From Candidatus Poribacteria bacterium (lineage in GTDB: Bacteria; Poribacteria; WGA-4E; WGA-3G), in contig OZ251518.1 of the NCBI GenBank assembly GCA_965242965.1, positions 4,416,001 to 4,480,000 of the forward strand: a DNA stretch of 64,000 nucleotides, written 5' to 3'. The first letter of the stretch is position 1. Every line of letters begins with the position of its first letter. The notes under the pieces were generated by a model. The model did no database searches and was not told the DNA's origin. It worked only from the letters and a program-made list of their open reading frames with translations. Of the stretch, positions 2,454-56,529 are shown one piece after another. Made by a program: the position numbers and the translations under genes.

Positions 2454-2719
2454 GAGGGTGTTTCATAACTCTGTTTTGATATTTATCCCGCATTGGAGGG
2501 CGCGCGAATACCGGCTGGCATTGGGCCCACCTCTGTAGTTCGGGAGCACCCGCTCCCGAACGGGTCAGGATCAGGCGATCCTGACCTACAGAGGTGAAGA
2601 GGTCTGCCAGCCAAACGCATGGCGAGGGACAGGCCCTCGCCCTACGTGAAAGGGAGGCGTTTTTTCACCGTAGCGAGGGGCCTGTCACCGCGACGTTGAG
2701 CAATTTATGAAACACCCTC
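2454..2719. mobile_element. MITE-like element (266 bp) with 15-bp TIRs, carrying REP palindromes
   Basis: GAGGGTGTTTCATAA at 2454 and its exact reverse complement TTATGAAACACCCTC ending at 2719. Flanks AATTACC / AATTCACC (imperfect duplication). Homologous to 54211-54982 in the opposite orientation. Confidence 0.75.
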
Positions 2720-51806: not shown

Positions 51807-54182
51807 CTACTTTGATTTCAACGCGCTCCAGCGCGTCGCCAGTTTACCGCGCGCGGCGACATGTCCTTTCAACCGTATCGTGCCTATTGCCTGACGCTCA
51901 CCACCCAACGAAACCTCCTCTAACCGGTAATAGTAGATGACGTTCGGCTTGGCAGAGGTGTCTGTCCACGTGTAGGTGTGCTTTTCACCTGACGTGCCAG
52001 TCCCGGGAATAAGCGCGGGAGTGACTCGGATAAACGCGCTGTCCCGCGCTGTGCTACGCAGGATATTGAATCCCGCGGTATCCACCTCTGATGCGGTGGC
52101 CCAGGTGAGCACCACCCCTGCATCGGTGCGCGCCGAACGGAAATGTGACAACACCACAGGCAATGGCCCACCTGTGCGATACCCGGGGGTGCCGATATCT
52201 GTCGACAGCCCATAATAAGTTCCAACCGCTAGCGAGACAGATGCCGCGCTCACCCAACTCTCGGCGGCGGTGCCAAGCAGCGGCGCGCCTGCTTGATACT
52301 GCCGCAGCATCGACGCACGCCGCCCATCAACTGTCTCATCAGATGGCACCTCCCACGCAGGCGTATCTTTTGTGCGACGCTCCCCATCTAAATTGCCCAC
52401 CTAGTCGATGAGCGTTCCCGCCGTATTATATAACTTCAGCGAGAACCCCGCCGCATTCAATACATCATTGCGACGCGCCCGCTGGTCGAAGGCATTTGGA
52501 TGCTCAAAGTAGAGGTTGTAGAGTTTTCCTTCTGGGAATTGCCCGGATGTCTCACCGCGCCAGGTGACGAACAGCACCGTCTGATTCGGCAACACCGTAA
52601 ACGGCTTCAGCGAGACAGTTTCGTGCCGATGCCGCCGCGCGTTTTCTACGTCCAGCGACTCCACCTCCAGATGCCAGCCTTCCAGATTCACTGCCGCTGT
52701 TCGAGAACTATTGTAGAGTTCTATCCACTGCGGCGCGGAGCGACGGCCCACCTTGTTAGGCAACATCAACTCACTGATGCTGAGCGTGCCAATGGGCACT
52801 TGTCGCGTGACAGCAGTGTTTGCATACCCGGGTGTGCCGAGGCTCGTGGCCGGGTTTGCATGCAGCCGGTACCCGAGGCCGCCCTGGTATCCAGCGGCTG
52901 TCCATGCAGAGGCGAGGTATCCACGGGTATCCTCGTCGGTGCGCTGCCAGACTTCGCCTACTGTGAAAGGTGGCGCATCGCTGGCAGACAGCGTGTCTTG
53001 AAGGGGCCACACCTGTGTGTCGTTATCAAAGTCCCAGGCGGTGCGGAAGTAATTGCCTGCGACATCTTCAAACGCGGCTGGCTGGCCATTTTTATCGGTA
53101 GCACTGCGCAGCAGCAACAGATAGCGCGTTGCAGGCAATCTCAATTGTTCCGCGACGAGATAGCGATGCTGTGCGCCTTTTTTCCCTGTGCCTGCCTCAA
53201 TGTTTATGCCACCCGCCAGGGCGGTCTGACTCGGTGCAGTGTTGACGATGAGAAGGACTTCTCCAGCCGGGAGGATGTATTCGGGAAAGGTGACGATATC
53301 GGCATCATGCGTGTCTGCGTCAACAATGCTCACTTCCCAGTTAGCGAGGGATAGAGCTGCATCGCTGATGTTTCGCACCTCCAGCCAGTCATCTCTGTCG
53401 TCTTGCGCATTGCAAATCTCGTTGAAAAGCAGCCGATTCATGGCAACAATAGATGGACGCGGCTCGCGGACGTAGAACAGGTACCGCTCTCCCGCGAGCG
53501 ATAGACTTTTCCCTTCGTCTCCATAAAGGAATCCCTGCCCTGTGTGAGGATTGCGTAGGATTCCATCGACAAGGCTCACTTCTGAGTCTTCCACCAGTTT
53601 TCCGTAGACAAACTCCCAGTGCGAGGACCCGTTGCCGATGTAGCGATTGGCGAATGCCCGTTTCGGAACCGGATCGTCGCCTGTCAAGATTTCAATGTAA
53701 GGTCTTTGTTCGGGGAGAGCAGTGGGGTCGGCGAGGCGCACGAAGTCTTCGCTAAAAGTTATCCGCAGTTGCACTGCTTCACCGGCAGCATACGTCGGTG
53801 TCGCCTCTGGTGGGACAACGCCGAACGCTTCTTGGACGACAGGTTCAGCAGCCTGTCCTTCTGGAACAACCGCACGTTCTTCTATAAAACGATCATCTGG
53901 GACAGTTCCTCCAGCTGCTGGGACTAGAGTGCCAAGAGGATCATCACGTTCCAGGATTCCATCTCGCAGTGTCCCTGTGGTAGTCGTGCCATCCGCGGGA
54001 TAATAGACGTGAATAGTCTGCTCTTCCTCTTCGTAGGGGTTCACGGGCTCATCTAAGTCAATACTATAGATGAATACCACCTGCGTGGCCTGAGCCGGGA
54101 AGATCGGTTGCATTAACACGACTCCTCCCGTGAGGAGCACCAGAACTAAACGGGTAAGCATTGAAAACGTATTTTTCAGCAT
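51807..54182 (-). pseudogene. Secreted lamin-tail-domain protein interrupted by an in-frame TAG (52401-52403)
   Basis: ORFs 52401-54182 and 51807-52400 are contiguous in frame. LID*VGNLDGERRTKD aligns with KIDEVGNIDDNRRTDD of the 8255-12939 paralogue. Confidence 0.8.
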
Positions 54183-54210
54183 GAGAGATATCTCCTTTCT
54201 GTAGTAAACT

Positions 54211-54982
54211 GAGGGTGTTTCATAAATCGCTCAACGTCGTGGGGAAACCCGCTCGGATGCGCGTGTGGCATCCGAGGGCCCCGCGCTACGATGAAAAAAT
54301 GGTTCTTGAGCTATCGCGGGGGACAGGCCCCCGCGCTACGATAAAAAAACGCCACCCCCGCACCGTAGGGCGAGGGCCTGTCCCTCGCCATCGTTCAATC
54401 TCCACGCTGATTCTGTAGTTCAGGATCGCCTGATCCTGAACTGTTTGCGATCAGGCGATCGCAAACTACAGAGGTGGGCCCGAGGCGCGCCCGGTAGGCG
54501 AGACCTCCTGGTCTCGATGCAATAGGGCGGCGCGCCGCCCGAGGCCGCGGCGGCAGAAAGCCTCTTCATCGTAGGGCGAGGGCCCTCGCAGGTTTCCCTC
54601 GTCATCGTTTTGCCGCCAAACCTCCTCACCTCTGTAGGTCAAGATCGCCTGATCTTGACCCGTTTGTGATCAGGCGATCACAAACTACAGAGGGGAAACA
54701 CATCGTGACGATAGAGATCGCGGGGGACAGGCCCCCGCGCTACGATGAAAAAAACGCTATCCCCTTATCGTAGGGCGAGGGCCTGTCCCTCGCCATGCCT
54801 AGGTCTACCGAACGATCGCGGGGGACAGGCCCCCGCGCTACGGTAAAAAAAACAGTTCTTGAGCCATCGCGGGGGAAACCCGCTCGGATGCGCGTCTGGC
54901 ATCCGAGGGCCCCCGCGCTACGGGAACATCGAGACCGGGAGGGCTCTCCTACCGGGAAGAAATCGACTTATGAAACACCCTC
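54211..54982. mobile_element. MITE-like element (772 bp) with 15-bp TIRs and 8-bp target duplication, filled with REP palindromes
   Basis: AGTAAACT-[GAGGGTGTTTCATAA ... TTATGAAACACCCTC]-AGTAAACT; no transposase ORF. Confidence 0.88.
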
Positions 54983-55185
54983 AGTAAACTTGCTTACAGT
55001 TCTTGTTAAGGGTTATTGTGTTCATTTCCGGATAGGTAGGAGAAACCTCCTGGTCTCGATGCCCTTTTGGTAGGCGCGCCCGCGGATTGAAACCCCTGCA
55101 CCATCGGACATGGATGGGCCGCCTACCGGAGAAAATGGCGTTCTCACCCAGCTCCCTAATAAGGCGAGCGGGTTCCGCTTGCACG

Positions 55186-56529
55186 CTAGGAGAGTTGCCC
55201 TAAACTCGCGGTGCTATCGCCTAATTGCGGTAAATGGACATCCATGCGATTGAGCAAGGATAGCCACAGATTGTTCAGCGGTGTCTCCTTTGGATACCGG
55301 ATATGTCGCCCACTTTTCAGGGTGTCGCAACCGTTACCTGCCAGCAAAATCGGCAAGTCGTGGTGACTGTGGCGATTGCCATCTGCGTTTCCACTGCCGT
55401 AGACAACCATGGAATGATCGAGCAGTGAACCTTCGCCTTCCGGGGTTGCGTCCATTTTTTCCAACAGGTATGCCAACTGCTGCGTATGGAATATGTTAAT
55501 CTGGCAGATTTTCGCCTTCTTCTCTTCATCGCCGCCGTGATGCGAAAGATCGTGGTGTCCCTCAGAGACGTTGATAAACGGATACGGCTTGTTACTCCCT
55601 TCATTTGCCAACACAAAAGTGACGATGCGCGTGACATCCGCCTGAAAAGCAAGGACAATTAGATCCATCATGAGTCGCAGATGCGCCTGATAATCCGCTG
55701 GGATTTCGGCAGGGACGGCGTAATCCGGCGTTTCTATCGGCGGAAACTTTTCAACGGCATCGATGCGGCGTTCAATGTCTCGAATCGCGGTGAAGTATTC
55801 GTCAAGTTTGCGGACATCGTTGCCGCTGACGTGGCGGAGCAAATCTTTTGAATCCTGTCTCACAAAATCAAGAATGCTTTTGCGTTCTCCATCGCGCTGT
55901 TGCCTTTGCGAATCTTGCATAGAGGTAAAGAGGCGTTCAAAGGCGAGTTTTGGATGCACCTCTTTCGGGAGCGGTTGCGTGGCGGAACGCCAAGAGAGCG
56001 TTGAGGAATAAACGCAGCTATACCCAGAATCGCAATTGCCTGCTTTTCTCCCCGGGTCGATGCCGAGTTCAAGCGAGGGGAGCCGTGTGCGATTGCCGAT
56101 ATGGGCAGCGGCGGCCTGATCGACCGAGGTACCAGCGTGGATGTCGGCACCGTCGGTTTTACGAGGTTGCGCGCCGGTAAGGAATGCCGCCATCGCTCGC
56201 GCGTGGTCTCCGCCGCCATCGCCGTTTGCGCGCGCCTTATCCGCTGTGAGCCCACTCAGCACCAGCGTTTTCTCTTTCACCTGTTCCAACGGTTGCAAGA
56301 TAGCGGTGAGTTCATAGTCGCTTCCCACCTGCGCCGGTGTCCAGTCAGCCATATTTTTCCCATTCGGCACGTAAAGGAACGCCATCCGATTGGGGGCTGT
56401 TTGCACGCTAGGTGCGGGCGCGTTCGCCCATGCCGTTATGGGCCCCATCGCTTCCAGCCACGGGACGGCAATGCTCACGCCGAGCCCGCGCAAAAAGGTT
56501 CTACGTGAAAGGTGTTTTGATGTGTTCAC
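55186..56529 (-). CDS. DUF1552 domain protein
   Basis: Tat-like SRRTFLRG, YVPNG, CDSGYSCVY, EGHHDLSHH, H.H.DLP. Confidence 0.88.
   Translation of the reverse strand: MNTSKHLSRRTFLRGLGVSIAVPWLEAMGPITAWANAPAPSVQTAPNRMAFLYVPNGKNMADWTPAQVGSDYELTAILQPLEQVKEKTLVLSGLTADKARANGDGGGDHARAMAAFLTGAQPRKTDGADIHAGTSVDQAAAAHIGNRTRLPSLELGIDPGRKAGNCDSGYSCVYSSTLSWRSATQPLPKEVHPKLAFERLFTSMQDSQRQQRDGERKSILDFVRQDSKDLLRHVSGNDVRKLDEYFTAIRDIERRIDAVEKFPPIETPDYAVPAEIPADYQAHLRLMMDLIVLAFQADVTRIVTFVLANEGSNKPYPFINVSEGHHDLSHHGGDEEKKAKICQINIFHTQQLAYLLEKMDATPEGEGSLLDHSMVVYGSGNADGNRHSHHDLPILLAGNGCDTLKSGRHIRYPKETPLNNLWLSLLNRMDVHLPQLGDSTASLGQLS

Follow-up and report, generated by a model that had tools for sequence, protein, structure and literature searches.

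The 772-bp segment at positions 54211-54982 of the window, which is the whole analyzed stretch of 64,000 nucleotides, was confirmed to be a genuine MITE. It is one of about 300 paired copies in the genome and not a singular object. Very probably, it is a non-autonomous element that was inserted by the DDE transposase of a partner IS and whose body is a mosaic of GTAG REPs, partly inherited and partly turned over later. The ends, the target site duplication (TSD), the family, the partner IS, an empty site, the REPs of the master consensus and the differences between the copies were observed directly.

The initial annotation had described perfect 15-bp terminal inverted repeats (TIR) and a perfect 8-bp flanking repeat. 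Both could be read directly from the sequence, and a second element of the same family was identified in the window:

54203-54210, left TSD copy AGTAAACT; fits the target A-n-T-T-A-A-n-T and is the single copy kept in the empty-site contig
54211-54225, plus strand, left TIR GAGGGTGTTTCATAA; the 1107-bp IS of genome G022 has identical ends
54968-54982, minus strand, right TIR, exact reverse complement of GAGGGTGTTTCATAA; sequence read directly
54983-54990, right TSD copy AGTAAACT; read directly and crossed by the empty-site comparison
2454-2719, second MITE of the same family in the canonical 266-bp form

The inverted repeat is readable for 3 further nucleotides into the TSD, since the target itself is palindromic. 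The 64-kb window was searched for the TIR with up to 3 mismatches, resulting in 6 matches compared to 1.11 expected, a number reached by none of 100 shuffles. Four of the matches are exact and pair up as 54211/54968 and 2454/2705, corresponding to the two MITEs.

Between the TIRs lies an interior of 742 bp, in agreement with the previously annotated REP-rich body of about 740 bp without a transposase. None of the 6 internal ORFs (42-92 aa) matched a Pfam family, and no transposase was found in the 772-bp element. The interior is built from 14 GTAG-headed REP units, namely 3 A2, 2 A2 with a nested C hairpin, 2 A1, 1 degenerate A1, 4 B halves (forming 2 doublets) and 2 D. The modules, including the subterminal arms, are located as follows:

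54226-54237, plus strand, L-arm ATCGCTCAACGT, subterminal, the family's most frequent arm type; present next to the TIR in 106 of 989 ends
54238-54289, minus strand, A2-type GTAG REP with a C hairpin (54252-54276) nested in its loop
54313-54392, A-type doublet 1, REPIN-like: A2 (minus strand, 54315-54339), A/T-rich spacer, A1 (plus strand, 54365-54389)
54412-54474, B doublet 1, two inverted GTAGTT... REPs (plus strand, 54415-54440; minus strand, 54444-54469); this REP type also flanks the RAYT gene
54494-54518, plus strand, D-type GTAG REP
54571-54603, plus strand, degenerate A1-like GTAG REP with a truncated loop insert, read from the sequence
54631-54693, B doublet 2 (plus strand, 54634-54659; minus strand, 54663-54688)
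54716-54796, A-type doublet 2: A2 (minus strand, 54719-54743), spacer, A1 (plus strand, 54770-54794)
54817-54841, minus strand, single A2 REP that makes up a direct dimer together with the following unit, via the spacer ...GTTCTTGAGC...
54868-54921, minus strand, A2-type REP with a nested C hairpin (54883-54907)
54928-54952, minus strand, D-type REP adjoining the right end, the second arm type of the family

Strict module matches span 329 of the 742 bp, and every 20-bp bin of the 772-bp element recurs in the genome between 178 and 2675 times. B doublets 1 and 2 share 89% identity, and each has copies at other loci with 100% identity. The modules have identical or near-identical copies elsewhere (0-3 differences) and are less alike among themselves. 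Local tandem duplication was therefore rejected as the source of the internal repeats, and the interior did not grow by local duplication. The GCGATCGC motifs were also considered as the cyanobacterial HIP1 repeat. This assignment was rejected, as nearly all public loci of the partner IS are titled Poribacteria (76 of 78, see below) and the motif is part of the B-type REPs.

The whole genome (5.70 Mb, 2 contigs) was found to contain 989 TIR ends with up to 2 mismatches, 396 of them exact, compared to 4 for a reversed-pattern control, so that a chance origin of the ends is excluded. In 352 cases a plus-end is directly followed by a minus-end. These pairs have a median length of 427 bp and a modal class of 250-300 bp. 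The 291 pairs with a length of up to 1200 bp, which make up 2.07% of the genome, were used as the working set, and flank identity was scanned in the 304 pairs shorter than 3 kb. Identity peaked at 8 bp (63 exact and 36 with one mismatch) and at 9 bp (26 exact), with 0-8 pairs at lengths of 4 to 7 bp. In the working set, an exact 8-bp TSD was identified in 62 of 291 pairs, compared to 0.4 of 291 with shuffled partners. Exact TSDs are present in only about one third of the pairs (62 + 26 of 291). Ends of this type are thus paired and duplicated elsewhere in the genome, in line with the proposed transposon shell.

The target consensus determined from the flanks is the palindromic A-n-T-T-A-A-n-T. 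Among the 62 exact 8-mers, 9 do not have the initial A and 13 do not have the final T. The duplication is therefore truly 8 bp in length, and not 6 bp beside a longer TIR.

The master consensus was derived from 85 pairs of 230-300 bp. It is 266 bp long and shows the order end, ATCGCTCAACGTC, A2 (minus strand), spacer, A1 (plus strand), linker, B doublet, right arm and end. This architecture is common to 57 copies and was also found in G001, a genome of the same genus. MITE lengths range from about 160 to 1100 bp, and 213 of the 291 elements, including the 772-bp element, have an architecture of their own. No second copy of the 772-bp architecture was found in the genome, the best other match being 385 bp at 81%. 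Its combination of an L-type left arm and a D-type right arm constitutes the largest arm class (111 of 291) and is not the canonical pairing.

Both canonical arms are present in 64 elements, of which 48 have a length of up to 305 bp and 16 a length of 306-1094 bp. The excess DNA in the 16 longer elements consists mostly of discrete REP modules at varied positions. The C hairpin of about 30 bp is inserted in the A2 loop of 4 canonical-arm copies and in the A1 loop of 2 copies; further additions in the longer copies are extra A doublets, B and D modules.

REPs are not confined to these elements, and their stems rank as the most abundant 14-mers genome-wide. When up to 3 mismatches were allowed, the following copy numbers were determined:

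A1, GTAG followed by the hairpin GGCGAGGG/CCCTCGCC, 2568 copies
A2, GTAG followed by the hairpin CGCGGGGG/CCCCCGCG, 2106 copies
D module, 1813 copies
C hairpin, 595 copies

Of the 595 C hairpins in the genome, 565 are nested in an A-type REP loop in a single orientation. The B module is a doublet of GTAGTT... REPs. The A doublets number about 395, with about 393 near-full-length copies of A-type doublet 1, and the B doublets 367-449. In total, 7082 REPs were counted in the genome, 1030 of them inside the 291 MITE pairs, so that about 85% are located outside. By a rough ORF-based estimate, MITEs contain 8.7 REPs per kb, compared to 6.1 per kb for the remaining non-coding DNA and 0.15 per kb for coding DNA. 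MITEs thus exceed other non-coding DNA in REP density by a factor of only about 1.4, and their REP-laden body in part resembles ordinary intergenic DNA of this genome.

The REPs do not depend on the MITE shell. REP-A1 (up to 2 mismatches) was found 2359 times in the own genome (G000), 698 times in G001 and 468 times in G002, and 0-2 times in each of the other 38 genomes. G002 has its 468 REP-A1 copies but one MITE end, and no REP-A1 was detected in the IS-bearing genomes G022 and G024. Doublets are more tied to the MITE than single REPs. Within 400 bp of a MITE end, 41-42% of the A doublets and 58% of the B doublets were found, compared to 28-39% of the single A1, A2 and D modules and 11.6% of the genome as a whole.

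A link between GTAG REPs and a RAYT enzyme had been drawn in the initial annotation, and it holds for one REP type. The genome encodes one RAYT gene, its sole match to NCBIfam REP_Tyr_transpos NF047646 (120.5 bits, cut-off 80), which is flanked on both sides by B-type REPs; no A or D modules were matched at this locus. Since only B-type REPs flank the gene, the link is presumed for the A and D types, and RAYT may also move the A, C and D modules. A second PF01797 match (L001) was rejected as a RAYT gene, as it represents a decayed IS200/IS605 tnpA-tnpB.

Two ways in which the REPs could have come into the shell had been proposed, dispersal by the shell and continued accretion. Both have support. 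Dispersal is supported by the master consensus, which carries an A doublet and a B doublet; it is a minor route for REPs, of which about 85% lie outside paired MITEs. Continued accretion is supported by the canonical-arm copies, which differ from each other by added REP modules. From this we infer that the REP differences between the copies arose after insertion. The 772-bp copy itself is compatible with arriving loaded or with growing in place, since there is no second copy of its architecture.

Alternatively, all of the REP cargo could already have been present in the transposing copy, with many differently loaded masters and no REP gain after insertion. Long loaded elements do behave as single insertion units, as exact 8-bp TSDs are present in every length class, including 9 of 31 elements of 600-800 bp, and small clusters of longer architectures exist (2 copies of 495-531 bp and 6 copies of 295-328 bp). 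However, the 213 unique architectures among 291 elements would require hundreds of masters, each of which transposed once. In addition, the canonical-arm elements depart from the consensus through separate insertions of REP size, which are located at various positions, and the REP modules of the 772-bp element have identical copies at unrelated loci. We therefore regard an origin of all cargo before transposition as unlikely, and a mixed origin of the REPs, by inheritance and later turnover, is preferred. Two orthologous loci of G000 and G001 were set aside as evidence for accretion. Their interiors differ, but both histories are ambiguous: the first may represent independent insertions in one hot spot, and the second has a 14-bp flank repeat.

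The initial annotation had interpreted TIR and TSD as the footprint of DDE transposition. This interpretation is supported by a partner IS with the same ends and a DDE transposase, by the TSDs of the family and by an empty-site allele. G022 contains 7 identical copies of a 1107-bp IS with exact 15-bp TIRs and one ORF of 353 aa, and duplications of 9 bp (AATTAAAGT) and 8 bp (AATTAATT) were identified. The 353-aa transposase matched the Pfam families DDE_Tnp_1_3 (39.1 bits, cut-off 27) and DDE_Tnp_1 (26.7 bits, cut-off 23). With its size of about 1.1 kb, one DDE transposase of about 350 aa (DDE_Tnp_1/DDE_Tnp_1_3), short TIRs and a duplication of fixed length, the element resembles IS982 and IS5-type DDE ISs. 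Its score against the NCBIfam IS982 equivalog was 54.9 bits and thus under the cut-off of 130, so that this likeness is not a family assignment. G024 has an element of 1108 bp, whose ends are exact and whose DDE transposase is split, and more distant versions with related ends and 8-bp duplications are present in G016, G032 and G023.

In the public collection, 213 relatives were found, among which 78 distinct partner-IS loci were examined. Nearly all of these are titled Poribacteria (76 of 78), and a TIR pair 1105-1324 bp apart is present in 68. The exact motif was found at both ends in 27 loci, an exact 8-bp duplication in 37 and an exact 9-bp duplication in 3. MITE and IS show no similarity to each other beyond the 15-17 bp of the ends. 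The number of TIR ends (up to 1 mismatch) in the own genome and 40 relatives was as follows:

G000 (own genome), 807
G001 (same genus), 8
G002 (same genus), 1
G022, 15
G019, 10
G006, 7
Other relatives, 0-5

An autonomous IS with the same ends, for which the initial annotation had suggested a search, therefore exists in intact form in other Poribacteria (G022 and the public loci), but only as decayed remnants in the own genome. There, a profile search for PF01609, PF12762 and PF13612 gave no matches. The TIR pairs of 900-6000 bp number 34, and no transposase was found in the 3 pairs with matching or near-matching flanks, which contain a 607-aa metalloprotease-like/ankyrin ORF, a 1405-aa LRR ORF and no ORF, respectively; in the other 31 pairs, the ORFs were listed by length alone. 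The identified IS wreckage comprises a 54-aa transposase fragment with a stop codon, located at an exact right TIR, and 6 remnants of an IS end of about 137 bp with 70-75% identity. Since the parent IS is decayed to fragments, the family is probably immobile in this genome now, a clear instance of MITEs persisting after the decay of their parent IS. The absence of an intact transposase is not easily reconciled with the perfect ends and with the polymorphism of the site between strains that are about 97% alike.

This polymorphism was identified in public sequencing runs. The fraction of sampled words of the stretch shared with a run was 0.70-0.82 in five runs and 0.40-0.49 in five more, 4 of the latter being sponge metagenomes. 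Contigs were compared for the region 53400-55800 in 4 of the 21 listed runs (X1, X3, X6 and X10); no RNA run is among the 21. In X10, positions 1802-2610 of record 9 (2693 nt, depth 101) cover 53400-54202, and the directly following positions 2611-2693 cover 54983-55061. Exactly 54203-54982 is missing, i.e., 780 bp consisting of the 772-bp element and one TSD copy. The 809 and 83 letters on the two sides have 19 and 9 differences from the window, respectively, and the record therefore derives from a related strain and not from the same DNA. The filled site was found in contigs of X1, X3 and X6, which come from the gene and enter the left TIR, reaching position 54233 with 0, 0 and 10 differences, respectively. 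The right junction is crossed by contigs of X1 and X6.

The empty site of the 772-bp element is represented by one assembled contig of one run. A second filled/empty locus was found between the genomes, where a 198-bp MITE in G001 corresponds to a single AGATAAGACT in G000. Empty-site alleles of the kind considered in the initial annotation thus exist at two loci. The empty allele could in principle have arisen by precise excision, although insertion is the simpler reading. The neighboring genes gave no further empty site. The upstream DUF1552 gene is kept in 27 of 40 relatives, and the lamin-tail gene was located downstream of it in none of the 19 relative loci fetched. For the lamin-tail gene, the best match in the relatives is 64% identical and comprises the C-terminal part only; together with the large paralogous family to which the gene belongs, this leaves no usable ortholog.

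The gene beside the insertion has the following properties:

52401-54182, minus strand, lamin-tail gene encoding a protein of 593 aa with a Lamin Tail Domain (PF00932, 67.5 bits); ATG at 54182, RBS AAGGAG at 54192-54197

The MITE starts 28 nt upstream of this ATG and 5 nt beyond the RBS. It had been placed between the RBS and any upstream promoter, which is correct for the RBS; a promoter could not be located. For sigma-70-like promoters in the region 54100-55300, 0 were found compared to 0.7 expected, with a consensus that may not apply to this phylum. On the sense strand of the lamin-tail gene, the REP spacers represent hairpins followed by T runs, with 2 overlapping terminator-like matches at 54377-54352. 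A read-through leader of 1003 nt was predicted to fold at -520 kcal/mol.

Judged from such sequence features, the lamin-tail gene might have recruited the insertion as its regulatory leader (promoter donor, terminator or insulator), the element then being kept for this function and not as passive selfish DNA. The position directly upstream of the RBS, the terminator-like sites and the strong predicted fold would fit this idea. It is nevertheless very improbable, because no sigma-70-like promoter was found, because the site is empty in a related strain and the element is hence dispensable, and because the gene belongs to an extensive set of paralogs (32 matches in the genome). Some effect of the MITE on the lamin-tail gene is conceivable.

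That the segment is not one transposon at all, and that two solo ends, or two MITEs minus their inner ends, bracket a pre-existing REP island, is hardly credible: unpaired ends are common (285 of 989), the arm combination is non-canonical and REP islands are present everywhere in the genome, but the perfect 8-bp duplication encloses the entire 772-bp unit, the related strain is without exactly the unit and one TSD copy with nothing left behind, and no internal TIR-like sequence was found in the element at up to 3 mismatches.

For the preferred reading, a DDE-inserted MITE with a REP mosaic as its body, the following mechanism is proposed. The DDE transposase of the 1.1-kb IS, which is widespread in Candidatus Poribacteria, would have recognized the 15-bp ends and inserted the 772-bp unit as a whole, acting in trans. 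An 8-bp staggered cut at the A-n-T-T-A-A-n-T target, here AGTAAACT, and its repair would have duplicated the 8 bp. Part of the REP content would stem from the master copies of the family, with which it was spread by DDE transposition. The REP differences from copy to copy are most readily accounted for by modules having later been gained, lost or exchanged inside resident MITEs.

A further and more tentative reading, which we consider possible, is that two non-autonomous parasites have been fused into a chimera served by two enzymes. In one genus of the Poribacteria, IS ends would have come to frame a REP cluster. The doublets would thereby have gained a DDE route, and RAYT-type REPs would still insert into the MITEs already present. 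The basis for this second route is that about 40-58% of the A and B doublets are located within 400 bp of a MITE end. The origin of such a chimera could be read from the distributions, since the REPs belong to one genus, the IS is common in REP-less Poribacteria and only this lineage combines both. In the combining lineage, the family underwent a burst to about 800 ends.

If this is true, the approximately 300 copies would be natural traps that record REP insertions and their site rules, since each copy descends from a known master. A candidate for such a rule would be the position of the C hairpin in the A-type REP loop in one orientation (565 of 595 copies). REP mobility, which to our knowledge has never been directly watched, could then be measured from genomes and sponge metagenomes.

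As a rule, MITEs and REPs are regarded as distinct classes of small bacterial repeats with unrelated mobilizing enzymes (DDE and HUH, respectively). In the genome analyzed here, they are physically nested on a large scale. Both components belong to textbook classes, and their combination is not a new kind of system. Nested small repeats are also known by report from Nostoc, where Elhai and colleagues are said to have described in 2008 very small palindromic repeats nested in each other and in larger repeats, reportedly without claiming a RAYT link. Phylum and repeat families differ from those found here.

Among the IS-derived MITEs of bacteria, Correia/NEMIS, RUP and Nezha are listed by Di Nocera et al. 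(2013; PMC3733652), and the R0/R2 repeats of Pseudomonas fluorescens SBW25, the ends of which match resident IS elements, are described by Silby et al. (2009; PMC2718517). The elements of this study are similar to IS-derived MITEs in being short and non-coding, in sharing their TIRs with an autonomous IS, in their TSD, in their hundreds of copies, in their location next to genes and in the existence of filled and empty sites. In contrast, their body is not a deleted IS but is built from the GTAG REP modules of another mobile system, and with lengths of about 160 to 1100 bp, most architectures are unique.

The REPs are in turn largely consistent with the REP/BIME/REPIN-RAYT systems (Nunvar et al. 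2010, PMC2817692; Bertels and Rainey 2011, PMC3116915; Di Nocera et al. 2013, PMC3733652). The GTAG head with an imperfect palindrome, the thousands of extragenic copies, the inverted doublets with fixed spacer and a single RAYT gene flanked by REPs, here of the B type, are common features. The system described here differs in that a DDE-type TIR/TSD shell encloses many of the REPs and doublets, which were copied with it, that A1 and A2 stem variants pair as doublets, and that the C hairpin is nested in REP loops.

A MITE with another class of repeats in its interior is on record in Porphyromonas gingivalis (PMC4596501). This element is reported to contain an internal minisatellite and to be of variable length, like the MITEs of this study. 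Its cargo is a tandem minisatellite, however, and not a dispersed repeat family that has a transposase of its own. In the openly available literature searched, including Di Nocera et al. (2013), Delihas (2011) and Silby et al. (2009), no DDE-type MITE with a body of RAYT-type REPs was found.

The MITE copies offer a means of dating and mapping the gain and loss of REPs. They add to the picture of repeat-rich intergenic DNA in uncultivated sponge symbionts, in which insertions directly before genes are polymorphic between co-existing strains. New in this analysis are the identification of the partner IS and of the empty site, the rule of an 8-bp target, and the finding that REPs and IS are separated phylogenetically.

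Beyond the window, a 2902-bp unit (G000:C1:54311-57212 in the source genome) has ends that match those of the MITE exactly and is bracketed by a perfect duplication of 8 bp, ATTTAAGT. A transposase is absent from this unit, which contains an ORF of 607 aa with a HELGH metalloprotease-like motif, ankyrin-like repeats and dockerin-like DVNGDG repeats. The unit looks like a passenger gene mobilised by ends of the MITE family. Inside some long members of the family a second repeat family was identified, consisting of palindromes that resemble AGGTCCTTTAGGTCCTTAAT and are unrelated to the GTAG REPs:

L055 327-1189 (same-genus genome G001), long member holding AGGTCCTTTAGGTCCTTAAT-like palindromes
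G000:C1:4195337-4196430, long member holding AGGTCCTTTAGGTCCTTAAT-like palindromes

A member of 198 bp (L056 309-506, contig C48 of G001) is missing the A doublet, and its junction lies within the REP stems. It is flanked by a 10-bp repeat (9/10 identical), and the matching locus in the source genome, G000:C1:~90820-90829, is an empty site for it. This member is either an ancestral form without REPs or the product of a hairpin deletion. The canonical 266-bp MITE at window position 2454-2719 (region 2350-2800) is without a clean 8-bp duplication; its flanks show a longer imperfect direct repeat, CGCGAACTATCAATT(T)ACC, the right copy of which is shifted by 12 nt.

The C hairpin (25 nt) was located within the loop of an A-type REP, in constant orientation, for 565 of the 595 copies genome-wide. 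Two readings fit this pattern: a very small insert specific to the loop, or a separate, extended REP subfamily. Further REPs lie immediately outside the 772-bp MITE, towards the DUF1552 gene. REPs were already present in this intergenic region before the MITE was inserted.

54252-54276, C hairpin
54883-54907, C hairpin
55036-55060, D-type REP outside the MITE
55036-55130, region of the D-type REP and related hairpins, between the MITE and the DUF1552 gene

The lamin-tail-domain protein (window 52401-54182) is one of a large family of paralogues. The source genome has 32 matches and same-genus genomes have 14-21, most of them within far longer frames of about 1100-2200 aa.

The 368-aa frame around the RAYT gene (L002 1417-2523, minus strand) was rejected as an artefact, its initial ~210 codons running through a B-type REP array. 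The true RAYT protein starts near MQRASNRIKNEH and comprises about 157 aa. Separate from RAYT, locus L001 (G000:C1:3123891-3127127) is a decayed IS200/IS605 element, in which a tnpA with two TGA stops is followed by a tnpB-like frame.
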